Under the pieces are notes generated by a model. The model was not told the DNA's origin. It searched no databases and saw nothing but the letters and a program-made list of their open reading frames with translations. A DNA stretch of 60,625 nt, counting the filler, from Hausera hauseri (lineage: Eukaryota): NCBI GenBank assembly GCA_046269625.1. It is 12 parts of 12 records of this genome, joined end to end, with 100 filler letters (N's around TTAATTAATTAA, not from the genome) between each part and the next. Parts side by side here need not be neighbours in the genome. Positions count along the whole stretch, not along the records: positions 52,539 to 60,625 come from JBJURY010784312.1; 11 more parts are not named here. One strand, given 5' to 3'. Positions 2,706 through 60,430 of the stretch are shown in pieces (position 1 is the first letter of the stretch; every line of letters starts with the position of its first letter). The translations under genes were made by a program, and so were the position numbers.

Positions 2706-4028
2706 AAGGCGAATGCCTGAACCTAATATTTCTAGCGTATCATTTATAGTTTTCGGAACTTTTGTGAATTGCTTTGAATTTATGTCCGTCTGCTGGTTAC
2801 ATTTCCGCAGCCATTCTATATTTCTGATTAACGTCGTACCATTATCCCTTTCTAACGTATAAGTTCTGTCGTGGCGTTTCTCTATTCAGTGAATTTTCCC
2901 AACAGTCTCGACGTGAAGTTGGTGGGGCGTGTACCATTCTTTACTTACCTTCCTGCCAAAGACAACTTCTTTTGGGCTTACCCCAATTGCACTTTCACGG
3001 ACTAGAAGAACCCAGTTGCTTTTCCGGCCATCTGACAGCGTAGCGCCTATGCATTCCCTTATTGTTCTGAACTGCCTCTCGACCATTACATTTGCTGAGT
3101 AATGGTAAGGACTTGAAAACCGGAGCGTCATGTTGTGTGTCTTGGCAAACGTTTTCATGCTTTTTGAAGTAAATGTCTTCCCGCAGTCAAGGTATACTAT
3201 TCGGGGAGCACCAAATTTCAGGATCCATTTCTTTTCTAGTACTTCTAACGTTGTGGCCTCATCCTGCTTAGCGACGGCTGTTAGTGATACGTATTTCCTG
3301 AAATGATCCACGATCGCTAGTATATGTCTGATTTCTAAATGGTGGGTCGAAAGGCTCACAGAAGTCCAAATATGCCTTCCGTCTTTTGTGCAATAATAGG
3401 TGCCTTCGTCTTTGAGGTTAACGTTTTCATTATCTGGCAGCTCTTGCATCTTTGTATCACTGCTTCGAACGCTGTGGTGAAACTACCCATATCAAAAGTG
3501 TCTTTCAGTTATCTGTACGTCTTCTTGCCCCCCGAGTGACACAAAGACTTGTGCATCTCTTAGATAAACTTTTCTCTTCGCTTGTTGGGTATCCATATTT
3601 TACCTTCGAGTGTGACAAACCGGTTGTCCTTTATTTTGTAGTTGGTATCCCTGCCATCGGCAATGTCTTCTTTGATACGGTGTATTTCGTCATAGTTCGT
3701 TCGCCAGATGAAGTCGCCTAGATTTGAGAGTACATACGAGACTTGCTTTTATTTTCCCTTTCTTCTCATCCTCGTGAGTCAACTTGCATTGGACGCATTC
3801 GCTACATTCGTTCCTTGACATTGTATCCGCATTTCCGTGGAGTATGCCTTTCCTATACTCCATCTTGATATCCAGATTGCTCAGGAAGTTAATCCACATC
3901 TGAAATTGTGGGGTGATTGCCTTCTTCGTTCTCAGCTTAAAGGTAATGGCTTTGTGGTCGGTTCGGAGTGTAAATCGTCTGCCGTACAGGTAGTGTTTGA
4001 AATGTTGGCAAAAGTAATATATTGCCAG
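2706..4028 (-). pseudogene. Ty3/Gypsy pol remnant (RNase H end, integrase zinc-binding region and core)
   Basis: WINFLSNLDIKMEYRKGILHGNADTMSR; ILAIVDHFRKYV; WILKFGAPRIVYLDCGKTF; SPYHYSANVMVERQFRTI. Confidence 0.9.
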
Positions 4029-7739: not shown

Positions 7740-8885
7740 GAATACTTTGTAATATCAGGAAGCGGTGAAGAGTATCTAGATTTGTTTAATACTTTTGTAC
7801 ACGTGAGAGCCAGAGTCGCTTTGGCCGATGGCGACAATTTACCCGATAGTGCTGAAGTGGCCCCAGTCAAGAATTATCTCCACAGTTTATTTTCGCAAGT
7901 GGATGTCGCCCTGAATGATACGTTAATCATGCCAAGCGAAAACACTTGTCCTTACAGATGTTACCTCGAGTCCGTTTTAAATTACGGGCGGGAAGCCAAA
8001 AGGGGTCACCTGATGGCAGCCCTGAACTACAACAGCGTGCCAAAATTTTTCAATGAAGCTAAAGCTGATTCTAATGCTGGCCTGAAAACGCATCATGACT
8101 AGGCCGTGGGTAGTCGAGAAGTGAATATGATGGGAAAGTTACACTGCGACATTTTCACCCAAGACCATTACATGCTGAATGGAGTGGACATACAGATCAA
8201 ACTCACCCCTTCTAAAGACTCGTTCAACCTCATAGCCGACGATCCGAATCTCGGTTATAAATCAGTTATAACGTGCGCCGTCCTGGTGGTCAGGAAAGCC
8301 AAATTAAATCCGGCCATTTCTCTGGCCCATGAAAAAGTCTTGACTTAAGTGAATGCGAAATATCCCATCAAATGAGTCGTGATAAATACATTGTCCATAC
8401 ACAGAGGAATGTTGTCGCACATTCAAAATAATCTTTTTCTCAGTCAAACGCCAACGTGCATCGTGATCCGGATAGTACATTCCTCGGCTTTTAATGGCAC
8501 CTACAGAAATAACCTGTTCAACTTTCAACATTTCAGTTTGATGTTCTTGAACGTCACCATCGATGTGAGGATGGCCATGGGAAAGCCATTAATGGTAGAT
8601 TTTGAGCCATTACGCTTGAGCCTTTTTTGGAACCAATCTAGCCATGGGTCTGATCGGTAAGGATGCCGGCTGCGATATCGACAACAACAGTTTCAAAGAC
8701 GGTTATGCTCTCTACACATTCGATCTAAGTTCCAGCCTTTTTGACGGAGACTAGTTTGAACTCGCGAAAAACGGACTTCTTTTTCGCCATGACGCCCAGC
8801 CCCTTACAAGTCATGGTGTATGCCTAACAAGACTCTATCATTGAAATTTCCAAAACCAGACAAGTGTTACTAGACTGTGGCTTAA
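7740..8885 (+). pseudogene. Maverick major capsid protein (double jelly-roll), decayed
   Basis: FVISGSGEEYLDLFNT..APVKNYLHSLFSQVDVALND..PYRCYLESVLNYG..GKLHCDIFTQDHYMLNGVDIQIKL..AFNGTYRNNLFNFQHF..GYALYTFDL..IIEISKTRQVLLD. Confidence 0.9.
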
Positions 8886-8894
8886 CAAAAAAAG

Positions 8895-9304
8895 ATGGAC
8901 ACTCGACAGATACAAACAATTTTAAAATCTTACATTTTCGTCAGCCGACATCCCGTCATAGTTGTGCCCAGAGACATGTTACCCAAACGCATCGACCCAA
9001 CAGAACCGTGGCCTTTGTCATAAATATGGATCCCAGCGACCTACCCGGTACGCATTGGGTAGCCGTGTACTATGATGGCATCGGCACATTTCACTATTTT
9101 GATTCCTTTGGACTTCCACCGCTGCATGTCGACATTGACGATTTCATTAAACGTAACTTTAAAAGAGAATTCATCTACAATGAGCGAGTCTTACAATATG
9201 TGTTTAGTAAAGCTTGTGGACTCTACGTCATTTATTTCATCCTCATCAAAGCCAGAGTGGGTTCCATGCGATGCATCATCATGTGTTTTTCCTCAATGAG
9301 ATAA
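8895..9304 (+). pseudogene. Adenain-type cysteine protease of Maverick
   Basis: INMDPSDLPGTHWVAVY..YFDSFGLPP..LQYVFSKACGLYVIYF (catalytic H, D, Q, C present). Frameshift near the start. Confidence 0.9.
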
Positions 9305-13504: not shown

Positions 13505-14040
13505 GAAAGGGGCATATTTTGCTGTTAAGGGTATGTTTCTCAAGAATGCGAACGGTGGGTAGGTCGTGTTCTTCGTGTTTAGGGGAATGTAAGTGGGTAT
13601 TTTCTATTAAGGGCGTGTTTCTTATGGTTGCGGGCGTGGTTTAGGTCGTGTTTAGAGGCACGTAAGTGGGTATTTTCTGTTAAGAGCATGTTTCTCTAGG
13701 ATGCGGGAGTGGTTTCAGGGTCTTCTTCGTGTCTAGGGACAGGGCAGGGCATATTTTTGTGGTCAAAGTCAAGCAGAAGAGCACGGAATGGGAGTCATGT
13801 GATGTCAGAAGGTGAAGTCAAGATGGTGGTTGTATGGCCCACGTGGGCAAAGTAAAGCGGAACAGGGCGGAACAGGAAGTGAGGTCATGTGACAACAGAA
13901 GGTAAAGTCAGAGGACAGAGTTAGACAGAAGCAAGATGGCGATTGCGTGGTCTACATGGGCAAAGTGAAGCAGAACAGGGTGGAACAGGAAGCGGGGTCA
14001 TGTGACAGCAGAAGGTGAAGTCAAGATGGCCACTGAAGTG
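13505..14040 (+). repeat. Two sets of degenerate tandem repeats (~85 bp and ~100 bp units)
   Basis: AAGTGGGTATTTTCT(A/G)TTAAG..TGTTTC and GTCATGTGA..CAGAAGGT(G/A)AAGTCA each recur about three times. Confidence 0.75.
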
Positions 14041-23399: not shown

Positions 23400-24870
23400 T
23401 CAAGGCAGAAAATTGGGGCCTGCCTGTGTCCGACGCGCCGGTAGCGGAACACCTGGCCGTGCCCAATTGAATGGGCCGGAGGGCGACGATCGGTTCGGGC
23501 ACCACATCACCCCCCTTCGTGACAAAGATGAAACTATAAAGAATAAAAGATAGAGACAAAAAGTCGCAAAACGAAGGGTGTCAGCTGAGCTTAGTGTGAA
23601 TAAGACATTGGGTACCTTCGACTGATTTTTCCCTTCTATAATTGCTGAATGTGACTCTGTGTGTTGTGTTTGTGCGATGTTTTTGTTTGCAGAGATTGAG
23701 GTTGGGGAAAAAATTGTTAGATTTTGGTGTAGGTGTTGTGTCGTGCGAAAATCCGTAGGAATAAAGAGAAGAAGAGGATGAAGAAGGGAGAGTGATTGTT
23801 GAAGACGGATGTTTAAAGGCATTGAAAAGTACTAGAAGAAGGAGTGATGAAAGGTGTAGTGGCGGATAAAGGAAGAGAAGAAAAGGTTGGAGTATAGATT
23901 GGAGTTGTGCTGAGTGAAACAGTGGAAGAGGAAGATGATATAGAAGGAGTGGTAGGAATAGAAGTCGAAAGTGTAGAAAGTGATGGAGCAAGACTAGGCG
24001 CAGAAGTGGAAGGTGGAAATGGTGTAGCAATAGATATAGTGATAGCAGGGGGTGAAGGAGTAAGAAAAGAGGTTTACGTGTCGGTTGGTAAGGTGTCGTC
24101 GACAAAGAAAGTGGGCTTTAGGTTGGTAATGTGTACTGTGAGGTCTTTGCCGTCTTTACAAATAATGGCGTTGTGTGAGTGTAGCTGTATCAGTTTATAG
24201 GGCCCCAGGTACCGCGTCTGTAAACCACAGGGCGCTTGATTCTTCAGCCATACGAATTTCGCCGAATACAAATCTTCGGGTAAATATGCTTTGTCTTTGT
24301 AAAATATCCTGCAGAACGAATCTTTGCTGACCTCGACGAAGAAGTTTTGCGCCGCCCGTATCGCCTCATCCTTGGGAGTGTCGTCTAGGGCGGTTAGTTA
24401 GAATAATGATCGGGCAGGTGCTCCGAATAAAGCTTCAGTAGGTGAATATCCTGTAGAAGTGGACGGAGTGTTCCGCCAGCCGAGCAGAACGAACGGAAGA
24501 AGATTCGTCCAGCTAGTGTTGGACTCTACGAGAATTCTTAGTGACGTTTTCAGTGTTCGGTGGAAACGTTCTAGAAGGCCATTCGATTGGGAGTGATGAG
24601 GCGTAGTATGAATGTGGCGGATTCCCAATCGATTAACAAGGGATTTGAAGAGGTTGTATTCAAACTGTGGACCCTGGTCCGTGATGATGAAGCGAGGTGG
24701 TCCAAATCTGCTAATCCATGTACGAATGAAAACGTCAGCTATAGTGTCGGTGTTTGTGCTCTGCAGAGTGATGGCTTCTGGCCATCGCGAGGAACGGTCC
24801 ATCATGGTGAGGATGAATTGATGTCCGTTGTCTGGAGGAAGAGGGCCAACGATGTCGATATGCACGGATT
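23400..24870 (-). mobile_element. Ty3/Gypsy (CsRN1/Kabuki-like) 3' end: integrase, low-complexity tail, PPT and start of 3' LTR
   Basis: HIDIVGPLP..DRSSRWPEA..WISRFGPP..TDQGPQF..SNGLLERFHRTLK; GPY motif (YLGPYK); PPT GAAGGGGGGTGA followed by TGTGG starting at 23506. Confidence 0.9.
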
Positions 24871-24970
24871 NNNNNNNNNNNNNNNNNNNNNNNNNNNNNN
24901 NNNNNNNNNNNNNNTTAATTAATTAANNNNNNNNNNNNNNNNNNNNNNNNNNNNNNNNNNNNNNNNNNNN

Positions 24971-34206: not shown

Positions 34207-34419
34207 AAAGTCTCTTCCCTTAGTTTTTTGTTTCTATATTTTATAAATCCATCATTCGTCTGTCTACTTTGCATCGTAATAGAAGAGAAAAGGCGGAAAC
34301 TTTCTATTTTAAATCACATTTTTAATAAAGATGTTATTAGCACTAATAGAGTTATATCAAACCTATTGCACAAAATCCTTCTTTTCTTTTATAACAAGGA
34401 AACGAATTTTACTGTAAAT

Positions 34420-35280
34420 TTTTATTACAGGGGATAAATTGGAATCGCAGAACTATATCACAAAATGATAACGAACGATTGTAAATTAGATATGGAAATC
34501 ATGAGGACAAAATGAGCTCTTATCTACGCTAACCCTGAATTAGCATCACAAATAATTCCTGAGGGAAGGAATTTTCGGTCGAGTTACCGGTGAGAGAAGA
34601 GACGTATCAATCAATGTAGAAGAAAAACTGCATACAAGAACTTCCCGTTATTTATCGGAATACTCCGCGGTTAGCCATGCCGCTTGAAGAGTATTATTAG
34701 ATAATGTGACCGAGCCAACGATCCTTAAGGAACGTAAGGCAAGTTTAGGAAAACCCATGTTTAGACGTAGCGAAACGGATTGGGTAAGTTTGCCAAATGG
34801 AGGCATTACCGCCGCTCCTATTAAGTTAACAGGAACTAACTTCGTAAAAGGAATAACAGACGATAAATTCCAAGACACCTCATCAAAAGGTATTTATAGA
34901 CCAAAAGAAATTGAAGCCTTTAGACAATTTGCTTTTCCGCGACAACGGACACGAATTAAATCGAGTCATGGCCTCCGTAGTAGATGATACTCAATACCAA
35001 TCCAAATTTGGAATCCTTGCTCGGAGTAAACCATTACCATCGAGTAACCACGGAAATACTTGAAAATTTTGGGAAGATTTTTAATTTTTGTACAGGCTGC
35101 ATCTGGATTTCTAGCGATATACTTAATCCAACTAATTAAGGCAGTCATCCCAGCAGTAATAAATGGATATGAAATATTTACGTTGACTGGATTTTCATGT
35201 AAAATTTTGACCTCGATTATCACACCCTTCGGAAAGTTTTTAAAGGCATATGAAGAAAGCAGATGGAAATCGGATGTAGA
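34420..35280 (+). pseudogene. Chuvirus-like glycoprotein, C-terminal half with TM region (copy H)
   Basis: IAELYHKMITNDCKLDMEIMRTK..PMFRRSETDWVSL..KGIYRPKEIEAFRQF..GRFLIFVQAASGFLAIYLIQLIKAVIPAVINGY. Confidence 0.8.
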
Positions 35281-35904
35281 ACGTCATGTTGGCTATCATA
35301 ATCGTAAACGAAAAGGAAGACCGATGTTTTTGTACAAGCGGAAGCTCACCAAACCTAAAACACGAAATAATTCGGATGATGACGAGCCGAAGGGAGGAGA
35401 AGCCCTTTTAAGAACGGACAGACATAAGATGTATTTCATCTTAAAGGCACCATCGCCTGTTACCCCCTTCCGCTCCAGTCTATGAAGACTGTGATAAGAG
35501 ATTAATGAGTTTGTATCAAACAGAAATCTATAAGAGAACGATTAGTCTAGAAGACCCTTATGAAGGGATGAAACAATATGGAATCTTATGGAAATTGTGC
35601 TATCGACAGTCTATAGACGAACCTAGAATTTTGTACTCCAAGAGAACCTCTAGAGACTAGAGCACTTGTCTGGGGAAATCAAAGATTACAGACTGTCCGG
35701 AATGTAGAACCACACACTAATAACCGAGAACCACTAATTAGTACTCATGAGTTAGAAGAGTCCAGCCTCCAAAACAACGAATTATACCCAAATGGAGAAT
35801 TAAGACAATTATCGGAAAACTTGGTGTCCTCTTCGGAAATCAGGATAAAACGGTCATAAAATATCGACAATCAGACGCCCGAAAGCTGAATCGAATTGTT
35901 TCAG

Positions 35905-36260
35905 AACAGTAATAGAAGGAAGACCCTTCGCCAAAATCACTATTGAAGATTGGAAAGTTTATGCTCTAATCGACACAGGCTCCGAAATGTCTTACATCAA
36001 AAATGACTCAATTCCTCAAACGTTAAGAGGACAGTTGTATCCACCATCAAAAAAAGATCCTGTAAGCACAGGAGCTTTCGGTCAAATGTTGAAACCGATG
36101 TTTAAATGGAACCCCGAAATTCGAATAGTTGGACAGTTTTTCCGTCACGAATTTGCAATTTGTAGTTCTAGGCTGCGACCTATTGAAAAAACTACCAAAT
36201 ATAGCAATAGATTTGCAAACTGGAAAACTAAGAGATTAGGCCAAATAAAGGCGTAAAAAC
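35905..36260 (+). pseudogene. Retropepsin aspartic protease (copy H)
   Basis: IEGRPFAKITIEDWKVYALIDTGSEMSYIK. Confidence 0.9.
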
Positions 36261-36699
36261 ACCTAAAGTCAGGAAATTTGGAGAAGTGTGGATCCCAGTA
36301 GACGAAAACATTCCAGCAATAACAGAAGTAATAATCTACGTGCAAATTCAACAAGATGACCAACCAGTATATTTTGAACCAAAGGAAGCGTTGAATCCGA
36401 TCAGAATAGCAAATAATGCACGGACCCTGGTCAAGTTACACGCTTATACTACTTTAGGAAATACTTATGGAGTATCGTCTATAACTATTGAAGAAAACCC
36501 TATAAATATGCTGAATTTCCACCTTATGTTGAAACCAAGTTTTCACTTGAATCTTATTGTCCATTCTATGAATTATGCCGTTATAAATTAATTATTGCCA
36601 AAGACGATGATGATATTGGTAGAGCTAGAGCTCTAAAACTGACTATTCCACTTAAAAAGCCCGGTTCAAACGAAGAAATAGATTATGAAGGTCAGAAGA

Positions 36700-37320
36700 T
36701 GCCGAAATGGTATCCTCCACCCCATTCACTGAGACCCGAGATAACAAGGGGTTGAACGAATGCTTAAAGCAGATATAATTAGGCCCAGCTATAGACCTTG
36801 GTACTCGCTAATCCTTATGTTTAAAAAGAAAGGTACTACAAAACATTGCTTTTGTATTGATTACAGAGCGCTGAATAATCTTATGATGAAAGATTCTTTC
36901 CCATTACCATCAGTAAAAGAAGCTCTAGATAGGCTTTCAGGAGCAATATGGTTTACTACTCTGGATTTACAATCCGGATATTGGCAAGTGGAAATTGAGG
37001 ATAAAGACCGCTATAAAACAGCGTTTAAGACGCACGATGGCGTTTATGAATTTAATGTTATGCCGTTTGGTATTACTACCGGACCAGCTATTTTTACAAG
37101 GATGATGAATAAAATGTTAATGGGACAAGACCACGCTTTAGCATACTTAGACGATGTAATGATAACATTCACGACAGAAGGATATTTAAAAGATATCGAG
37201 CACACATTAATGCGATTGGAACAAGCAAGGCTAAAATTAAACCCAAAGATATGCAAATTGGCTCAAAACGCAGTATTGTACCTTGGCCATATAGTTGGAG
37301 AATGAGGGTCGAAACCAGAC
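36700..37320 (+). pseudogene. Ty3/Gypsy reverse transcriptase (copy H)
   Basis: FCIDYRALN, KDSFPLP, FTTLDLQSGYWQV, KTAF, MPFG, YLDD (37144-37155), YLGH. Confidence 0.97.
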
Positions 37321-37329
37321 AAGCCGTTG

Positions 37330-37940
37330 TTGAACAAGATGTCAGATTGCATGAAGCTGCAAAATTAGAAAGAGCTAAGACACTGGCTAAGTTTATGTGA
37401 ATATTACGCCACTTATGTGCCAGACAACTCGAAAATAAATGCACCTTTATATCGTCTGCTTAAGAAAGGAATTAAATGGAAATGGACCGATGTCGAACAG
37501 AAAGCTTTCGACGAAATTAAGAAAGTCTTAACAAGCGAACCAGTTTTACGATACCCAGACTTTAACTTGTCATTTATAATCAAGACAGATGTCAGTAAGG
37601 AAGGTATCGGATATGAATTAGCTCAACAACGAGATGAAGAATTGGAACATCCAATTGCATATGAAGGACTTTACTTGAAGAAAGCCGAGAAGAATTATTC
37701 TGTTACGGAATTAGAAACTTTAGCCGTTAAAGAAGCACTTCAACATTTTAACGTTTGTGTATCGGCAGAAAATCATAATTGTGTCGGATCATAAAGCTGT
37801 CACGACTTTACCGGGACGAGCAAACAATCCCACATGCAGACTTGACAGATGGATTGAAGAATTCTTTAGATATAATATTGAATTTCAGTATAAGCCTGGA
37901 GACAAACAACTAGATGCGGATGCACTATCGAGATTAAAAA
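37330..37940 (+). pseudogene. RT connection and RNase H (copy H)
   Basis: PVLRYPDF..IKTDVSKEGIG..NYSVTELETLAV..SDHKAV..YKPGDKQLDADALSR. Confidence 0.95.
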
Positions 37941-38189
37941 CTAAGACAAGTGCAATTACGGTAATGAAGAAAGCTCAGCTTGATGAATTAATAGATCGCC
38001 AACGCGCTTTAACGTTGGACAAAGCAATGAAAATCTCAACCGAACAGAAAAGGGATAAAGTCATCCAGCAGATTATAGAATTTTCTAAAAGGGACACAAT
38101 ACGGAAGGGACGACAATTAAAGAAGCACCTACAGAGAGACGGACACAGATATTGTGTCTTGAATGATAAAGGCCGCGAAGGCATTTTAT

Positions 38190-38990
38190 ATTATGAACGA
38201 AAAGGAAGAAAACTGATAGTCATTCCAAAAGGCTTACGAACCGAAGTTTTAATGGCAGAACACGATTCATATTTAGCAGGGCATGCCATAGAAGAACACT
38301 GGAAAGAATATTGAATAAATACTTTTGGCCCAGCATCTATATTGATGTAAAGAATTGGGTAAGTGTTTGTGAAGTATGCGTAACCAAACAGAAGACAAAA
38401 ACTACATAGCAGAATTAAAACCAATCAACGTACCAGACAGACCCATGCAAGCCACGTCAATGGATATCGTAGGACCGCTACCCACGACCCACAAAAATAA
38501 TAAATATATCTTGACTTGTATTGATCGACAAACTCATTTTGTCGAGTTAGTAGAGCTAACCGATCAAAAGGCAGAAGCTGTGGTAAGAATAATTTGTTGA
38601 TATGGGCCCCCAGATCAAATACTGACAGATCGAGGAAGAAATTTTACAAGTGAACTATTTGAAAAGATTTCTAAAATATTTGAAATTGAACAGTTAGCTA
38701 CTACCGCATACCACCCTCAATGTAATGGAATGGTTGAGTCAATGAATGCAACTGTTATACGCATATTATCAACAGTAGTAGCCAAGGACTAAAAAGATTG
38801 GGATGAATCTTTAGAAAGAATTCAATTTGCCATTAATCTCACACAACATCCGGCAACAGGATTTACACAATTCTTCATGATGTATGGACGAGAAGCTGTG
38901 TTACCCACAGACTTAGGAATGACGCCATACACGACAAACCCCGAAAATTTAGAGCAAAACTTCGCAGAAGTGTTACAGACGTGACTACAG
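38190..38990 (+). pseudogene. Integrase (HHCC and DDE core; copy H)
   Basis: HDSYLAGH..CEVC..SMDIVGPLP..YILTCID..LTDRGRNFTS..TAYHPQCNGMVE..YGRE. Confidence 0.95.
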
Positions 38991-39467: not shown

Positions 39468-40075
39468 AAAGTACAGGCGCCATATTGAATATGGCACTTC
39501 TGGTTTTCGGTATATGTTTTCGTAATACTATGGAACATCATCTTTTGGTTCCTCATTTTTGTTTCATAGAAATCGACCACTACTATTCCTGATTCTCTTC
39601 CTTTTCCCGTACCGTACTCACCTCCTTTACGATATCCGGTATGCATATCCAGTTTCCCAATTGCTACTTTATATACTCGAATTATTTTTCCTTGCTGAGC
39701 TTCTAGCTCCGTTCCATCCCATCTCAATCTTCCGGTTTCTTTTGCTTGTTTACACTGTTATCGATCTAAATCCATGGGGATTAATGGAGTCGTCGGTTTT
39801 ACTATCGACGAGTGTCCGTGCATGTTTCCGCAGTGGAAAATACTCTGCAACCGTTGCAGCATGCACTCTGTTCCATCTATTGCAATTAATTCACGCTGCT
39901 GATATAGAAAATACTTTTATCTATAGTTACTAACTGGTGAGGTCGGGCATCTTTGCATAATTCCAAATCCACCAAGGAATATCTTTGTTCAATTTTAAAC
40001 TAATCGCAGTCATATACTGTAATTGCACCGAGCTGTCTTATTAACATCATAAGTGTTATTAATTTGATCATCCAG
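39468..40075 (-). pseudogene. Chuvirus-like glycoprotein N-terminus with signal-like segment (copy I)
   Basis: WMIKLITLMMLIRQLGAITVYDCD*FKIEQRYSLVDLELCKDARPH..FHCG..GHSS..GKLDMHTGY..GGEYGTG..VVVDFYET. Confidence 0.8.
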
Positions 40076-43000
40076 TTTGATTCGTTATCTCGCGCTGCGT
40101 TAGCTGATGTTAGATTTCTTACCATATTTTCAATTCTAGAGGTCGGTCTGTTTCCATCTTCGTCGTCAAATAACTTGGACCAATTTATCTCTGGGTATTC
40201 TCTTAGCAGCTTTTCTGATCAATCCAATGGTCCTATTGAATTTATTTTCCTTTAGAGGGTTTTTTTGATTGCCAAGTACAATATTACTTTCCTTAATTCT
40301 TCGTTAATATTCTCTACCATAATTTTCTCGATTAAAACTTCGTCAGATAAGTTGTTTTCGTTCATTTTGAACCGAAATGTTCTCATTATCCTTGCAGCAT
40401 CATATATTGCTTTTTCCTGTTTATCTAGCATCTCGTTTCTCGGTCCTGAATAGTTCACTATTTTGATAATGTATTTCAGTAGCTCGTTTAACACTTCGCT
40501 ATCGGAGTTAATCGCGGGCATGGATAATTGCCTTAGTTCTCTTATCAGAGCTGCATTTTGGTCAATATCATCTCTTATTTTTCTCGGCTTTCCAACTGAT
40601 TGTTTCTGTTTCTGCGCAGTTCGTGTTGCTTCACCAATCGGTACTAAATTTTTATCGTATTGTTCCTTATCTTTCTCACTCTGGAGGTAGTCAAAATACA
40701 TGACGGGTCTCTGACTTCCATAATGTGTCCTACGCAATGTTCATCTCTCGCTTTCCTTATAGCCTTAACGTTTGTTTTTTCGTCGGTAATTATAGCCACT
40801 ATTCGATTTGTTTCTTCTGGAATAATTCCGACATCTATTAGTAGCTCAGGTTCGTCCAGGATTCGACCTCGGAAATACAATCGGTTTTACTTCTCTAACC
40901 GTTGTTATCGTTTTACATTCAATTTCTCTCTCTTCCATCCAATCGGCTGATATTTTTACCTTGATCGTCGTTTCGGTTTTTGTCTTTAAGAAATCAGTGT
41001 ATTTCTTTATTAATAGCCGGGGCACGGAGTTGTAGACGACATTTTCACTTGATAATTTAGTCAATGTAGGAATCAACTGCCTCAATATGGTTTCGGTCAT
41101 GCTAACGTTAATGTATTCTATTAATTCTCTCTCGGCTAGTGCGGGATTTAATAGCATTCCCGCATTAAATCGCTGGTCGATTGGAAAGGTATCCATTGGT
41201 TGAAGTTGGATGTGCGTCTTGTGATTTTGGTTGTACAAATTTTCTAAATAAGCATCCCATCCTGAGTCATTTGTATCATCCGGAAGTCCATAATCTAACA
41301 ACACTGTAGGCGCGCTTGGCGCATTTTCACGGATTTCGTTCAACCTCGGCTGTACTTCCTTCATCAAGTTAGTGCGAAATTCTACTCCGTTTCCACACGC
41401 AAGTTGTATCGCTTTTTAGTGTTGGTTCTAATTCCTCTGCAGGAAATAACCCTTTTCTTTCATAATTCGTTAATTCGGTCGTCACATCCGTTAACCACCT
41501 TTGTACGAATTCTCTTTTATTCGTTAACTCTGATTGCGTGATGTTATATTTATTCGTATAAGCCTCAAATTCTTTGCCTAATTCATCTAGCTTCGTAGCT
41601 CTTTGCTTTGTGCGAATTCGCAATTTTTTTATTTCTTTGACCTGAGTTGTCAATTGTCGTGTCTTGTCGTCATGTATTTCTGCCATTGTCGATAGTAGTG
41701 ATATTATTTCGTGCATTTCTTTTAGAGTTCTCGAATCGGGATCTATTTCTTCGATCAGTCTTTTTACGAATTTAGCTTCGTCGACTGTTAGGCGATGACC
41801 TTTGATTACATGTATTAATTCAGCGTGACAATTCTGGTCGGTATCTGATGCTCACTCAAAAGGACGATGTAGATATTTAAGTACTTCTTCTAATGCAATC
41901 CGATGATTTAGGCAAATATCCAACGTCGATAGATCACATATTGACATTTCATCTATGGGTCTCGTTACCAGATGTAGTATTCCTTCTATGCGAACGCCTT
42001 TTAGTTTCGTTGATAAGGAGGAGATCCTTTCCTGTTTCGCCTATAATTCAATTTCTTCTATCATGGTGTACAATTCTTCCGTGAGTTTGATTTCCTGATT
42101 TTCGTTCATAATTCTTAGTCTCAATAATGCATTAAATTCAACTCGAAGGTTTGCCTCTATTTTGTAAACATCTAGATTACGCAGTATCTCTTTTAGCTTT
42201 TGTTTTAGCTGTTGTTCATATTCTGAATACTTCCTTAGACGATATTTCGCAAAATCAACTAATCTGTCTAATAGTTAAATCCATTCTTTGAGTTTGTTAT
42301 CTATCATTGGTTTCTCATTTATTACATTTTTTAGTCGTTCGTAGGTGTCGTGTAATTTATCATCTGGACCTTTAATATAGCCCGTTACTTTCTTGACGTA
42401 GTTAATTTCCTTCTTGTATTTGACGAATTCTAAAATACATGTTTTCGTGATATTTTGTACTTCTTGATTTTCTACATACTTTATCTTATTCCTACATCTG
42501 TAGATTTTGGAGCGCCTTTTATCCTGTGAGGCTATGCGAATTCCTATATCCCCATATTCCTGTGGTGCGTTGAACGCAATCTAACACATTTCCATTATGA
42601 GAGGAATGTCTACAGGTTCTATGCCTAGTATTGAAAATTCGTTTTCATCCAATTTGTATATTGGTTTATTTTTGAGGTGATAGATTACTGCGATCTCTAT
42701 TTCTACCATTAACCTTTCTAAATTCCGTTTTGTTCGCTTCTGCTTCAGATCCGTCTCTAGAATCCTTAATATTCCTTAGGCAGTCGCCACTTTATTCTTA
42801 ATTTCTAACTCCTGATTATATCATGTGTCGGTGAAGTTGATTCCGTATTTTATCCATAGATCCTATTTTTTCTTCCATTCATCAATCGACTTCTCCATAA
42901 TTCCGTACGTTTGCTCTGGTTCTTTCTTTTTGTTAACATCTTCCTCAAGGTATTGTTTGAATTCTTTGTACATTCTTTCGGCGAATTGCTGTTCTTTTCC

Positions 43001-43360: not shown

Positions 43361-43861
43361 TTACCATGTTATTATTATCATTACATCCAAATCTGACGGA
43401 ACTGATTTTTCTGCGGCTCTACGTTCAGTGTCATCCTTTTCCTTGGCCATATTCAAAATTCGCAGTGTACTAATGTAGCTATTTCCTAACTTTTTCAAAG
43501 CAAACGCAAACTGGGTGACTGATTCGCCCTTCTGTTGCGTCCTATTTTGATATACCATCAACTTTTGCTGTGGAGTTACGGTTGGCAGTAATTTCCTATT
43601 TAATTCTCCTACTAATGACGACCAATCTCTCTTTTCTTCGTCCGTCAACTCGGCGTAGGCATCTGCGGCCAAATTCGTCAAATAAAGCGATAATCGTCTA
43701 ATCATCTGACGAGGTTTTAACCCTATGCCTTCGGCGTGAAGTTTATATGTTTTCAAAAATTCATTTAATCCTTCCGGATCACCGTCGTATGCCGGTAAAT
43801 TTAATGATTTGTATGTGAAAATGTCCAGTTTCTGTCTGGCTGTAGTATTATCAGCTGCCAT
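43361..43861 (-). pseudogene. gag: Retrotransposon Gag capsid domain (copy I)
   Basis: LPAYDGDP..LSLYLTNLAADAY..DWSSLVGEL..RTQQKGESVTQFAFALKKL (MHR-like QxxxExVxxF). Confidence 0.88.
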
Positions 43862-52538: not shown

Positions 52539-53324
52539 CGTTTTGTAGCGATCTTCCTCCTCTATCTCTACTTGCCAATATCCAGATTGTAAATCGAGCG
52601 TGGTAAACCATTTAGCTCCCGAAAGTGTGTCTAAAGCTTCCTTTACTCATGGTAACGGAAAAGAGTCCTTCATCATGAGTGTATTTAATGCTCAATAGTC
52701 GATACAAAATCGGTGCTTATTGGTGCCTTTTTTCTTAACCATGGGTATAGGAGAATACCAAGATCTGTAGCTTGGCCTTATTATGTCGGCCTTTAACATT
52801 GGTTCAACCTCTTTGGTTATCTCTGGCCTTAATGAGTGTGGCAGAGGATACCATTTCGGCATCTTTTGATCCTCTAGATCTATTTTATCGTTGAAACCGG
52901 GCTTTTTCTTAAGTGGAATCGTTAGTCTTAAAGTTTTGGCTCGGCCAATATTTTCTTCATCTCTCGCGATGATCGAGCTATAGCGACAAAGTAATTCGTA
53001 GAATCGACAGTATGATTCTGGTGAAAATGTAATCTCCACATGGGGTGGAAATTCGAAGCCTTTATACGGTTTCTCCTCGATCGCAATTGATGGCACTCTA
53101 TACGTGTGTCCTAGAGTGGTATTGGCGTACAGTTTGGTTGGAGTGAGCGCATTCCTCGCTATTCTGATTGGCACGCGGCCTGTTAATACTATTGTCAAAA
53201 CATTGCTGAGCACGAGGTTTGGATCGAGCAATTCCTTTGGTTCAAAATATATTGGCTGATCGTCATCCTGATGTATCTGATCATGTATTAGAATTTCTGT
53301 TCTAGATGGTATGGTTTCATCCAC
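52539..53324 (-). pseudogene. PR-RT linker and reverse transcriptase N-terminus (copy L)
   Basis: PKWYPLP..MLKADIIRPS..SPIPMVKKK..RFCIDY..KDSFPLP..FTTLDLQSGYWQV. Confidence 0.95.
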
Positions 53325-53399
53325 TGGAATCCATAATTCTCCAAATTTTCTGTCTTTAGTGGTTTTAACTCGTTTATTGGGCCAAGTTCTATCAACTTG

Positions 53400-53735
53400 C
53401 CTGCACTGAAATCGATTGCTATATTAAGTAGTTGTCTCAATAAGTCACACCCTAACACTACATCATCCGTTAGTTGCTCCATTACTGAAAATTCATGATG
53501 GAAGAATTGTCCCATTATGTAAATTTCTGGTTTCCAACGGAATTTACTTTCCGATGATTGTCCGAAAGCTCCAATGTTTCCTGGATCAGTCGTGGGAGGT
53601 GGATATAATTGTTCCCGTAGGAATTGTGGTATCGAATCACATTTTATCAGTGATATTTCAGACCCTGTATCTATTAGTGCGAAAACTTCCTAACATTCCA
53701 ATTGCATTTTTGCTAAGGGCCTGCCTTCAATTACT
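53400..53735 (-). pseudogene. Retropepsin aspartic protease (copy L)
   Basis: IEGRPLAKMQLEC*EVFALIDTGSEISLIK..DVVLGCDLL. Confidence 0.92.
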
Positions 53736-54399
53736 GTTCCGTAATAACTTAGTGCTGTTTTTGAGTGTCGTATCGTAGACACTTTGTAGCCGTTTATGGT
53801 AACTTCAGTGGTTCCACCTGGCTGCTCGATTACTTGTCTTAACTGTCCAATTGTGTATAGTTCGTTATTCGTGCCATTTGCATTTTCTACTCCTTGGCTT
53901 CTAACTGGCGGCTGAACATCTTGGTTTCGGAGATTGCGTGTCTCACAACTTCTGGTAAATATTGACTGCATTTGGTTTGGTCTAGGTACTCTAGGTGAAT
54001 ATATTATACCGTGATAATCGATCGCGAGGCGACGATGTGGGGCAGACGTTCTTTCCGTTTCGTGGATCTTACGCAATATCCCATAGCGTTTTGCTTCTTC
54101 GTAAGGATCCTCTAAGTTGAACGGTTTCCGATAAACGTCTGCCTGATACGAGCTCATTGATTGTTTCTCTCAATCTTCATATATATGTGCCGTTGGCTGC
54201 AGTATTGGTAATGGCAGTTTCATAACAGAGTAGTTTTTGTGCCTACTTGGCCTAGAGATTACATGTCCTTCCCTAGGCTGGTCATCGTCAAAAATTATTT
54301 CTTCTTGTCTTGCTATCTATGAATTTTTGCCTGTAATCGAATATGCATCTTTTACGTTTTCGATTATGGTAGCCAACATGTCGTTCCACAAGGTTTTCC

Positions 54400-56245
54400 A
54401 TTTACTCTCTTCATAAGCTTTTAAAAATTTGTCGAAGGGCGTAATAATAGCTGTTAAAATCTTGCACGAAAATCCTGTCATGGTGAATATCTCATATCCA
54501 TTTATGATTCCTTGAATTATGGCTTTTATTAGTTGAACTAAAAAGTGTATCGCTAAAAAACCTGACGCGGCCTGCCCGAATATCAGAAATCTTCCCCAAA
54601 TTTTGTATAAAATTTCTCTAGTTACCTTCCTGTAATAGCCAACACCGAGTAATGACTCCCATTTCGCCTGGTAGCGCGAGTCCCCTAGTATCGTATGCAT
54701 CGCTCTGTTTAATTCATATGGACGCTGGCGGGAAAAGCCAGAAATTGTCTAAACGCCTCTACTTCTTTTGGTCGGTAAATACCCTTAGTGGCTGTATCTT
54801 GAAACTTATCATCGGTTATTCCTTTTATCAGGTTTGTACACGTCAGTTTGGTAGGTGGTACGATAATACCGCCGTTCGGTAAACTTACCCAGTCGGTTTC
54901 GCTACGTCTAAACATCGGCTCTCCTAAGCTGGTTTTACAGTCTCTTAAAATTGTCGGTTGAGTGGTATTTGTCAACAACACTCTGGTAATTGGTGTTACT
55001 AATCTCGGTACGTCTTTATATATATCACTGGAAGCTCTTGTATACACCTTTTCGCTTCACATTAATCGGTACGTCTTTCCTCTCGCACTCATACGTCAAT
55101 AAAACCCCTCCTGTTACTCGTCCAAAAACACCTTCCTTCATCGGAATTATTGGCGATGCCAACTCACGATTGGCGTATATTAGAGCTAGTTTAGTTCTCA
55201 TGATTTCCAAATCTAACTTGCAGTCGTTTGTTATCATCTTGTGGCATAACTCGGCTATTTCGGCTTGTCCTTTATAGTAAAAATAGTCGCCTCTGTTCTT
55301 CAAATAGTCTTCAATCCGGATGTCTTGAGTCTCGAGTTTGAACGTTCTGGTGTTTATTTTTGTTTCGGCTGCGAAAAATGCTTCATAATTGGTGGCATTC
55401 ATTACAACGTCGCATCTGCTGAGCATAGCCTTCTTTACAAATTTTAATCCATGAGTATCAGAAATCAGTATCGTAAGTGTGGACTGCTCGGCTATATCAT
55501 CTCGTGTTTTAGAGTTAGTTTCCGTGCTACTTATATATCGTTTCCCTGTCGTCTCATTGAATTTAAGTTCTTTGATTCTGATAAAATTGCAATCAGTCTT
55601 GGCTGGGGTTCCAAATTACCACGGAACTTAGAAGCGGGCATGTGTCATCCTAAACGTGACACTTGTGGTTCTTGGTGTAGAGTTTAGTAACGCTATGAAA
55701 CATCACTTTCTGTATACGTATTTCAGTTTCGTAGAAATCCACTATTACGATGTTCGACTCTAATCCCTTTCCAGTACCGTATTCCGCACCGTAACAATGT
55801 CCGGTATGCATATCCAGTCTTCCTGCTGCTAATTCATAAACTCGAATTATTTTCCCTTGCTGCATTTCCATTTCCATACCGTCCCATTTTATTCCCCCCG
55901 TCTCTCTAGCTTGCTTACAATGCTGTCGCTCTAAATTCATCGGAATCATTAGGGTTGTTGGCTTGATTATTGATGAGTGTCCATGTACCAGTCCACAGTG
56001 GAAAATGTTGCGAGATCGCCGAAACATACATTCTACTCCGTCCAGGTAACTAGTTCGCGTTGTTGATTTAACACAACTTTTCTCTTTTGTTTCTAATCTG
56101 TGGGGCCTCGCATCTTCGCACATGTCCAAGTCCATTAACGAATATTTTTGGCCAAGTCTAAATTTGTCGCAATTATATACTGTGACTGCACCCATTTGTT
56201 TGATTAACGTCATCAAGGTCAAAAGTTTGATTAGCCAGTTTGATT
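54400..56245 (-). pseudogene. env: Chuvirus-like (class III-type) envelope glycoprotein, complete but disrupted (copy L)
   Basis: Signal-like WLIKLLTLMTLIKQMGA, then VYNC..YSLMDLDMC..FHCGLVHGHSSI..AGRLDMHTGHCYGAEY..NDCKLD..GGVLLTYEC..TPITRVL..GIYRPKEVEAFRQFLAFP..TM. The cysteine and motif order matches chuvirus G as I recall it. Confidence 0.82.
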
Positions 56246-59200
56246 AATTTCCTCTCCTATTTCCAGTTACGTTTCATAGCACATCTTCAAATCTATTGCC
56301 ATTTGAGAAGAATTTACTTTGATATTCTTCTTCTTTCCTTAATAACTTCGACCAGTTCACCTCCCGGGGTAGTTTTCTGGCAGCCTTCCTTGCCAAGCTA
56401 GTAGCCTTGTTGAATTCAATTTCCCGGTTTGGGTTAGTTTTGATTGCCAGATATAGTAATACTTTTCTTAATTCTTCTATGGTATTTTCCGTCATAATTC
56501 TATCAATCACCATCTCATCGCTTAAGATACTTCTGGATAATTTACACCGTAAGTTTCTCATGGCTTTGGCTGCATTAAATATAATCCTCTCTTTCTCATC
56601 TAATATATCACCGTCGAGATTAGAGTGGTTTACTGTTTGTATCAAATCCTTCATCAATTCGTTCAGTTCCTCATTATCCGCACTGAAAGTTGGTATAGAC
56701 ATCTGCCTCAACTCCTTAATTAGGTCTCCATTATAGTCGATTTCTTTTCGTATATTCCGTGATCTGCCGACAGGGCGCTTCTTTTTGTTACCGCAGGTAT
56801 ACTGCCGTCTTTTGGTACTAAATTTCTATCGTATTGTTCATTATCTTCGTCTGTCTGCAGGTACTCGAAATATACTGTTGCATCTCGTACTCCTATTATT
56901 CGTCCTACCTGCTTTTCTGCTTTAGCCTTCCTTATAGCCTCTTCCTTTGTTTGGTTTCTAGCGGTAGTTACCACTAATCGGTTTACCTCACCTGGGATAA
57001 TTCCGACTTCTGTTAATAATTCTGACTCATCTAGGATCATTCGTCTGAAATAAAGTCTATAACTCAGCTCATGGGCGTATCCATTAGCCTTTATCTACAG
57101 CAATACATCCTTTACAAAGGAGCAGGTAGTGAACTGTTGCTCCTTTTCCACCATCCAGTCTGATACTATCTTTACTGGGATTATTTCCTCCGCCTTCGTC
57201 TTTAAGATTTTAGCATATTCCTTAAGTAAGAGCTTAGGTACCGTATTAGAAATTGTGCCTTCGCTAGCTAATTTAGTTAAAGTGGGAACTAGACGTCTTA
57301 GTTGATTTTCAGTGAGGTTCATTTTAATTAATTGAATTAATTCTTTCTCGGTTTGTACCGGATCCAGGAGCATTCCTACGTTGAACCTTTGTTTTGGAGA
57401 ATATACCTCCGTTTTATCCGATCGTATTGGAGTTTTTGGATTCTCGGTAATTATTGAGTCAAAATATGCATCCAAATCTGGTTCGTTTTTATCGTCTGGC
57501 AATTGATAATCCCTTGACAGTGCATCGGTTGGCCTGTCCACACTTGCGGTCCATGTAGTTTTCCTGAGTTCTTGTAGTTTTTGTTGCATTTGGACCATTT
57601 TCGTCGTTCGGAAACATCGTCCATTAGCGGACGTTTGGTGGAGCAGTGTTAACAACAAACATAATTCTTCGGGTGAAATGAACCCCTTTTCTTGATATTT
57701 CTTTAGTTCCGACGTGACATTTCTTTGCCATCTTTGAACAAATTGTGACTTGTCAGCCTTTTCTGTTTCTGTAAGGGCGTATTTGTTTTTATAGGCTTTG
57801 CGTTCTCTAGCTAATTCATCTAATTTTATCGCTCTCTGTTTGGTATTAATGCAAGTTTCTTCGACTTGCTGTATTTATACCAACAATTGTCTTAGTTTCT
57901 CGTCACTAATTTCTGCCATTTCCGCCATCAGTAGTGCTAATTCGTACGTCTTGTTAATACTGTTTGAATCTGGATCTTTCGCATCTAATAACTTTTTTAC
58001 AAATTTGATCTCTTCAAAATTGAGGTGGCGGTCGTTCTTTATTTTAATCAGTTCGGTGTGAAGTCTGCTCCGTTCCATCTCTCCATTTTTGGGGACGATG
58101 TAAGAAGTGAACCCCTCTTCAACGACTGATCGGTCTTCGGGACAACAGTCTAAGGTTTCAAGATCTCGGATCGAAATTTCTTCGATAGGTTTGGCTGCAA
58201 GTATCGTATTCCTTTTAAGCGTACATCTCTCAGTCGCGGATAGAAATCACAAGTCGCATTTCGTTTCCGTACGAAATTTGTTTCTACGATCATCATATAT
58301 TTATCATCTAATATCATCATTTCTTGTTTCTTCTCCATAAAGTTCAATTGGCATAATGCCTCAAATTGAGTTCGGATGTCAATTTCTGCTCTTATTGTAT
58401 CTAGATTTCGAGCGTCTTCTTCTAACAGTTTCTTTACCGTAGGTTCGCTCTCCGGAAATTCGCTCTTTCGATTGTTAATCAGTTTACTCAACCTGGTTAT
58501 TACTTTGGTCCATTCGTTCAGTTGATTAGCGATTTCTGGCTTTGCCAATATTGCTTTATCTAACGTTTTGTAAGCGTCTTTTAGCTTATCATCCGGACCT
58601 TTAATGAAATGTATGATCCGGTAGACATAATCAAACTTGTCCTTGTACTTATCAAACTCGAGGATGCAAGCCATAATTATTTTGTGTGTTTCCTCGTTAT
58701 TGGTTTACATAATTCTATACTTTAGACCATATATCTGAGACCGTTTTTCGGTTTCGATCCTAATACGATTTTCCAAACTTGTATATTGCTTTGATGCCGT
58801 CGAAGCGACCTTTATCATTTCCATCAAGGGTGGAGTATCTATGGAATCTATGTCCAACATCCCTAGGTCATTTGCATCTCGTTCATTCATGACACGCTCC
58901 AAATTACGTACGGCTCTTTTCAATTTCGGGTTGGCTTCTAATGTAATTAATAGCGACTAAGCTTAATTGATTTTAGCTTCAATGTCTCGAGTAATTTTAT
59001 CCCACGTCTCTGGGAATTTTGTCTTGCTTTTGCTGCATCGTTCTAGTTCGTGTTTCCACTGAGTTAGTGTTTCCTTTGGCACTTCTTCGGGCTGATCTAA
59101 GTCTATAGCTTCGCTTAGTTTCCTTTCATTATATAATTTCATCTTTTTGTATAATCTTTCTATAAACTGCTGCTCCTTAGCGGAAATATCCACTTGTTCA

Positions 59201-60040
59201 CTCATTACCTTGAGTTTTTCTACGTTCTGTTGAACTGCCTCTGGGTTTAGACAGTCGGTTCTCATCCTTTTTTATTCATTGGCATTTTTCCACGAGCGTC
59301 TGATTTTCCACTTTTTAGGATCGAGTTTCTCTTCTTGTTCTATTTCCTCTTCACTAGTAGGTAAGGGACATATGTCGTTTATCTCATTTATAGATTTAGC
59401 TAGCTCATCCATTTCGCTTGGCGTAACTAAATTAATTTCCGGAACGTTCAAGACGCATTTGGTGTCGCTTTCTAGCGCGATTTTGCTTTCTCTCTTTGTG
59501 CTTTACTTCTCCTGAGTCATAGGGGATTTCGAACGATCCTTGCGTTTTCGTCTCAATGATGGGCTACGGCCTCTATTCTTGGTAATTTTAAGTATAAGTG
59601 GTTCCAGAAGTTCTTCTTTTTCGTCGGCCTCAGCCTCCTTGGTTACTTTTTTATAGTATACTCGGGTTCTACATCTAAATCTACTTCATCCGGGGTCTCA
59701 GGTTTTCCTGTTTCGTCCGACTGCTTGCTTGTCAAAGGAATGTTCTTTTTCCGTGTCATATCAGTAAGGCTTGGTGGAGCGATGGAGTGTTCATATTCCG
59801 TTTCAGGTTCACGCAAGTCATGGTAAACTTCTAATAATCGTAATTTGTGTTCGTACTCGTTTTTAGCCACTAAAACTTTGGGGTCCTTAGTATCGGGCTG
59901 GGCCTTTAAGAAGCATCGTAAATCATGTATCTCGATGATCATACCCGTGTCTCTACGGACACCGTAGATTGCTTCTAAATATTTGTTTTTAATTACACTA
60001 ATTTTACTAGGTTCGACAAACGAAACATTTTGCGGGTTTG
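56246..60040 (-). pseudogene. Unknown helical/coiled-coil domain X, ~1,250 codons (copy L)
   Basis: Chain of co-oriented K/E/L-rich ORF pieces from 59942 down to 56274, homologous to copy I. Confidence 0.8.
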
Positions 60041-60041
60041 G

Positions 60042-60430
60042 ACAGGATCGCGCTATGTTAAATTCGTGTCCACATGTATAACAAATTAGATTACCGTTTT
60101 TTCCGATTCTCTGCCGGCCATCTTCATTTTGTGGGGATTTCGATCTACTCGGATTTCTATTGTAGCCTTGCTACGATGGGGCTTGTTTACAGTCCACATA
60201 CTGGCGGTTATCGTAATTCCGGCTATTATTCTGACGATTAAAATTTTTGGAGCCCTCTAGGCGCCTATCTGTATGATAGTTTGATTTACTAGAGGAACTA
60301 TTACGACTATTATCGAAATTCTAATTACTGTATCGATCGTTTTTGCTATCATAATTCTTGTTTCGATCCCCATAATTCCTGTTAAATCGTCTATCATGAC
60401 TTTATAGATATTTTACGACAGATTGTTTTG
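60042..60430 (-). pseudogene. gag: Gag C-terminus: R/N/S-rich region and zinc knuckle (copy L)
   Basis: CYTCGHEFNIARSC at 60042-60083 (CX2CX4HX4C spacing with H replaced by N), preceded by an RNYDR-type low-complexity stretch. Confidence 0.8.

Follow-up and report, generated by a model that had tools for sequence, protein, structure and literature searches.

A predicted internal signal sequence ahead of a gB-type Env between Gag and Pol in broken Ty3/gypsy copies of Hausera hauseri

Element copies in the window

The window, the whole stretch of 60,625 nucleotides (filler included) analysed from Hausera hauseri assembly GCA_046269625.1, consists of twelve separate segments joined by N spacers. 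Segments H (plus strand), I and L (both minus strand) harbour copies of one Ty3/gypsy element, which share 66-70% identity. Stops and frame changes break all three, and the element copies in the window are dead. Window segments terminate inside gag and RT. The layout read in L is gag, a region X, a helical domain, a signal sequence, env, a transmembrane helix (TM), protease (PR) and reverse transcriptase (RT), and the order within the segments places env between gag and pol in both L and I. The element belongs to a high-copy family, as 15,450 contigs of run X1 were placed on L at a likeness of at least 80%, covering 30 of 30 bins. Since run X1 is made of contigs, its joints are uninformative on splicing.

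At the Gag end, the translation of L contains a degenerate zinc knuckle, C-x2-C-x4-N-x4-C (60042-60083, minus strand), and copy I possesses a capsid-like region (43481-43810, minus strand) detected by tblastn with the related metagenome locus L004 (E 1.8e-11). Region X is a long stretch of L between Gag and the helical domain (56739-59642, minus strand), which shows third-position bias and has no Pfam name. Downstream of env, L encodes an aspartic protease (53390-53794, minus strand) with LIDTG at 53677-53663, in the frame shared with the TM, followed by the start of RT (52539-52905, minus strand), truncated by the segment edge. Copy H (34378-38915, plus strand) carries the C-terminus of Env, the TM, PR, RT, RNase H and integrase (IN), in that pol order, without the signal region. 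A PSAP motif is present in H, in the linker between the Env tail and PR near 35457, and in the related protein P0007, and PPFY is present in L004; neither occurs in the frame of L. We take these motifs to resemble budding late domains.

The broken copies retain traces of coding. From the helical block to the signal block the frame is kept in both L and I (spacings of 111 and 99 nt), and from the TM to PR both L and H finish in the frame in which they start, with no shared frame change. Third codon positions hold an excess of the differences in each of the 8 L/I blocks and each of the 9 L/H blocks, both junction regions included. Therefore, X and the enzymes were once coding, as were the two junction regions.

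Other features were found elsewhere in the window. Segment B shows a weak, below cut-off match to an adenovirus-type protease (8828-9304, plus strand, E 0.0043), which is possibly part of a Polinton-like element. Segment C contains a cluster of direct repeats of 70-130 nt (13515-14029), and integrase cores of other retroelements lie in segment A (2886-3482) and segment E (24398-24922).

Relatives with open frames

A phmmer search with the junction of L as query, its stops read as X, against 1.84 billion representatives returned 25 matches, with 22-33% identity over the start of env. Four of the 25 lack the region and were excluded. The hydrophobic segment ahead of env lies at least 100 residues into the ORF in 12 of the 25 matches, while nine begin at or near it. 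These proteins (P0002-P0028) are called proteins and were considered without their DNA. Pfam detected a zinc knuckle and env within one ORF in P0002 and P0003, and env, RT and integrase within one ORF in P0006, P0009, P0020 and P0027. P0009, a full Env-Pol polyprotein, is filed in a bacterial genome bin and probably comes from a misbinned eukaryotic contig. Among the called proteins, P0004 and P0018 terminate shortly after the Env TM, and P0005, P0006, P0011 and P0027 start 130-210 residues before Env, which may reflect breaks, gene-calling or regulation.

Motif scans checked by tblastn identified relatives in two of eight metagenome loci (L002 and L004) and in none of four genome loci. L004:97-11205 is a single stop-free frame of 3,703 codons running from Gag to past integrase, which encodes two zinc knuckles, env, two proteases, RT, RNase H and integrase. 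L002:2-10279 is likewise stop-free (3,426 codons), is open at its 5' end and has the same layout from X on. No LTR pair was found within L002 or L004. The RT of H is 40-45% identical to that of six relatives, so the relatives are layout analogues and not close kin. A word-index protein search with the env piece or the helical-domain alignment as query gave no match, the Atlas search gave no usable match for L and only leads below 0.9 for P0005, and no relative was found among the viral contigs scanned.

Several polyproteins carry tandem aspartic protease domains, with 2-5 motifs each (P0003, P0006, P0011, P0027, L002 and L004). A second, downstream ORF with a match to RNase T-type exonucleases is present in L002 (10617-12104, E 1.4e-5) and in L004 (12085-13470, E 1.1e-3).

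Env ectodomain and its transmembrane helix

The ectodomain of Env in L (54590-56186, minus strand) is interrupted by stops and frame changes, and was recognised by Pfam PF24664 on two pieces and by tblastn to L004. In the frame 56243-55650, residues 7-180 align to positions 8-181 of the 653 positions of the profile (E 5.5e-12), with 44.9 bits against a cut-off of 27. Judged from this profile match, the Env is of the gB/Monjiviricetes type. The ectodomain is whole in ten relatives, and each of these has 14 Cys.

Hydrophobicity was assessed with the Kyte-Doolittle scale and with an insertion scale whose values are approximate. The preliminary description had placed a TM near 54510-54590, and we found it at 54503-54589 (minus strand), a predicted stop-transfer helix. 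It is followed by a second, weaker hydrophobic segment (54434-54490, minus strand), which we interpret as a helix that probably lies on the membrane surface. On the approximate scale, each of the ten relatives whose ectodomain is whole shows a single strong TM, a weaker segment after it and no other strong window before PR. In L and H, the second segment scores near the TM on this scale (3.0 vs 2.6 and 3.3 vs 1.7), and these close scores are the main residual doubt on the topology.

The hydrophobic segment at the start of Env

The predicted Env signal sequence of L occupies 56187-56243 (minus strand), with its core at 56234-56202 and a predicted cut between 56187 and 56186. The stop-to-stop frame 56243-55650 on the minus strand starts with SNWLIKLLTLMTLIKQMGA, followed across the cut by VTVYNC, and the matching segment in I is NWMIKLITLMMLIRQLGA, followed by ITVYDC. 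The core thus ends in QMGA/VTVYNC in L and QLGA/ITVYDC in I, and the hydrophobic segment with a small-residue end that had been noted earlier is real, as read in the translations of both copies.

The same description had placed the segment mid-frame, which is true of I and not of L. In L, two in-frame stops (56246-56244 and 56276-56274) separate the helical domain from the signal sequence (56244-56276, minus strand), whereas the counterpart in I is stop-free for 48 residues before the core, within a stop-free stretch across the junction at 40003-40215 (minus strand). The absence of a Met ahead of the core holds for L, where Mets are present inside and after it. In I, by contrast, Met is the first core residue (40071), and a further Met lies 18 codons earlier.

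Taken alone, the hydrophobic run in L is modest. Among 2000 shuffles of the 197-aa frame, 334 match it anywhere and 39 match it within the first 30 residues. The case for a signal is strong because the segment is conserved in the relatives, and does not come from the run in L by itself. The core is short, about 11-13 residues, and is followed in 22 of 23 relatives by a conserved small-x-small site. At the position six residues ahead of the first Cys, all but one of the 23 relatives have a small residue, as L and I do; at the two positions flanking this one, a small residue is found in 6 and 2 of 23. At position -3 of the predicted cut L has Met, as does none of the 23 relatives. An alternative possible cut site three residues before the Cys is present in 22 of 23 relatives and absent from L and I.

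The helical domain ahead of Env

The domain that precedes the signal sequence in L (56277-56738, minus strand) is helical, and is Bcl-2-like in relatives. Four of the six members of alignment A1 match Pfam Bcl-2 (best E 3.7e-5). For a model of the L002 domain (pLDDT 70), the 40 Foldseek matches listed are only Bcl-2 family chains, with E of at least 0.09, and the best 24 VIA matches are all of the Bcl-2 family (best Z 9.4, rmsd 3.0, 110 aligned). By these matches, the upstream domain has a Bcl-2 fold in several relatives.

Support for a Bcl-2-like identity of the domain in L is weak. Pfam Bcl-2 gave no match on L alone, and the helical domain of L by itself had no meaningful match in PDB or Pfam. 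A model of the L domain, built with the A1 relatives, reached pLDDT 46 and Z 4.6-5.4, and all 12 rows with at least 100 aligned residues were of the Bcl-2 family. With a six-relative profile, 11 of 1000 shuffles reached the score of L and 6 of 1000 that of I; a four-relative profile matched neither L nor I, and for L alone the profile-profile probability was 0.9% and pairwise z was at most 2.0. Proteins of the Bcl-2 family are normally tail-anchored.

Expression of Env with Gag and Pol

One polyprotein may give equimolar Gag:Env:Pol, as the preliminary description had proposed for an unregulated frame. Past Gag, L switches to another frame at an A_AAA_AAG run that a stop directly follows (59643-59652, minus strand); this may be decay or a -1 shift site. 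A -1 ribosomal shift at this point would gate X-Env-Pol and yield an excess of Gag, so that output would not be equimolar, and it would be compatible with an internal signal. L and I both switch frame between the same two aligned blocks, which would suit such a shift. Nonetheless, RNA folding downstream is no better than in shuffles (-6.4 vs a mean of -7.5, and -8.2 vs -8.9), I has no alignment at the site, two further such heptamers lie near other breaks in L, and copies in run X1 differ in length near it. Moreover, L004, P0002, P0003 and P0007 are open from Gag to Env. We consider a gating shift unlikely.

Env could also, or mainly, be made from its own start, by an internal ATG or a spliced RNA, with the open upstream frame giving a minor full-length product. 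The Met at the start of the core in I and the nine short matches that begin at or near the signal would agree with this. However, L has no Met before the core, and nine of the 14 relatives with long upstream sequence have none in the 15 residues that precede it. A Met there in the other five is about what the Met frequency would give by our estimate, and it has no fixed position. A pyrimidine-rich splice acceptor was not found in the 330 nt upstream in any of four DNAs (L, I, L002 and L004), where the best candidates hold 9-10 pyrimidines of 18 against a background mean of 7-8. The preliminary description had named a conserved independent ATG or a splice acceptor as what would make env its own transcript; no ATG is conserved among these relatives, and the acceptor signal is absent in 4 of 4 DNAs. 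Separate expression of Env is improbable.

Membrane topology

Our preferred reading, to which we give a probability of roughly three in four, is that the segment is the internal signal of a gB-type Env between Gag and Pol, and that this Ty3/gypsy element, when intact, would make one membrane-threaded polyprotein. An internal signal with two crossings is likely because of the single frames of the relatives, the lack of a conserved Met or acceptor, the conserved small-residue site and the one strong TM, while cleavage by signal peptidase itself is a prediction from the sequence. Gag-X would be made in the cytosol, and the hydrophobic core would open translocation. Signal peptidase is predicted to cut after the small residue, the ectodomain would fold in the ER lumen, and the Env TM would halt transfer. 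PR-RT-IN would then emerge in the cytosol, tethered to the tail of Env, from which the protease of the element itself would free them, and the signal stub left behind would serve the upstream domain as its C-terminal anchor. The arrangement proposed earlier, with Gag-X cytosolic, the ectodomain luminal and PR-RT-IN cytosolic, is supported as a predicted topology and fits all discriminating tests.

With a fixed threshold rule, only five of the 12 proteins yielded both Env segments, and in those five every knuckle, PR, RT and integrase motif follows an even number of crossings. In the other seven, at least one known segment escaped the rule or the protein stopped early; the TM was missed in 3 of 12, which is why PR was placed in the lumen there. 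Extra hydrophobic segments between the Env TM and RT occur in 2 of the 12 and are paired in both (L002, and P0027, where they are 36 residues apart). Glycosylation sequons are not enriched in the parts predicted to be luminal (28 of 237 Asn vs 90 of 787, p 0.91).

With the same topology, the segment could be an uncleaved signal-anchor, or be cut slowly, so that Env would stay tied to the upstream domain until a protease acts. Cleavage does not follow from the internal position alone, the -3 residue of L is unusual, and the available text of PMC13524379 gives two flanking TM domains for some gB-type ectodomains. We nevertheless give this little credence, against the short core and the small-x-small site of the relatives. 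That the second hydrophobic segment also crosses the membrane, leaving the in-frame PR luminal and Pol to another product, is very improbable, despite its near-equal score in L, given that the TM outscores it in all ten relatives, that it holds a central K/R and that the extra cassettes come in pairs.

Extra in-frame pairs of a signal-like segment and a TM are present at L002:4754-5320, L002:9044-10030, L004:10009-10930 and residues 2094-2143 of P0027. They sit between proteases or past integrase, and the parts they enclose have no Pfam name.

More speculatively, and with doubt on our part, each luminal module might be an in-frame signal-plus-anchor pair (three in L002), so that the enzymes return to the cytosol, and the Env signal might also tail-anchor a captured Bcl-2-like protein, which would keep the host cell alive at the ER during particle formation.

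The internal-signal reading offers a testable account of an in-frame env between gag and pol, by two crossings and the signal peptidase of the host, a route like that of plus-strand RNA viruses. If the topology is true, Pol would be tethered at the budding membrane. As the window copies are dead, the value of this account rests with the intact relatives.

Comparison with known systems

Elements that carry env in frame between gag and pol, preceded by a Bcl-2-like domain, are already in the literature. The processing route, an internal signal cut by signal peptidase, appears not to be described in the literature searched, the accessible text of which holds no explicit statement on a signal peptide or signal peptidase in retrotransposon polyproteins; Sacco 2022, Grohme 2018, figures or supplements may contain one.

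The accessible text of PMC6431247 describes Burro/GYPSM1 as giant gypsy-like elements of more than 25 kb in a planarian host, with decayed copies of the Burro type in a related species. In it, Burro has env in frame between BCL2 and PR, called the first such case, and this env resembles mononegavirus fusion proteins; signal peptide and topology are not discussed there. Similar to Burro as described in that text, the intact element would have env in frame between a putative Bcl-2-like motif and PR in one polyprotein, whereas the window copies are broken. A single giant ORF as in Burro is seen only in the relatives, while the window copies keep frame across both env junctions. Unlike in Burro, the Bcl-2 identity is weak in L. 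Burro-type ankyrin, BIR, MATH, ubiquitin-like and dUTPase-like domains had no Pfam match in L, I and H frames of at least 150 aa. Among the relatives, P0027 possesses ankyrin and L004 has a weak ubiquitin match.

Endogenous retroviruses of nematodes reportedly carry a continuous gag-env-pro-pol frame. In the same retroviruses (Sacco et al. 2022, as cited in the accessible text of PMC13524379) ENV stands before POL, and the window element is likened to them by this partial description and not by sequence. GAG-ENV-POL errantiviruses with HSV/gB-type env are reported, in the accessible text of PMC13524379, from Nematoda, Bryozoa and Platyhelminthes, with ectodomains flanked by a signal and a TM or by two TMs. 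As far as that text goes, they share with our element the gene order, the env type and an ectodomain that has a signal or a TM before it and a TM after it; they are intact with LTRs, whereas the window copies are broken and stop short of their ends. The terms polyprotein and signal peptidase are absent from the main text of PMC13524379. Glycoproteins of this type also occur near gypsy fragments in the accessible text of PMC10084718.

Membership of the flaviviruses or alphaviruses, as plus-strand RNA viruses with RdRp and a class II fusogen, was rejected, given that RT and integrase are present and the env matches PF24664. The resemblance to their polyproteins drawn in the preliminary description stands for the layout, which works alike, and not for descent. 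Unlike hepatitis C virus and flaviviruses, with which it shares no homology, the window element is reverse-transcribing and has a fusogen of the class III type. Similar to core-E1 of hepatitis C virus and C-prM of flaviviruses, as outlined in the sources available, its upstream cytosolic protein would end in the signal peptide of the next glycoprotein; in core-E1 and C-prM, as given in those sources, the upstream protein stays anchored by this peptide after the signal peptidase cut.
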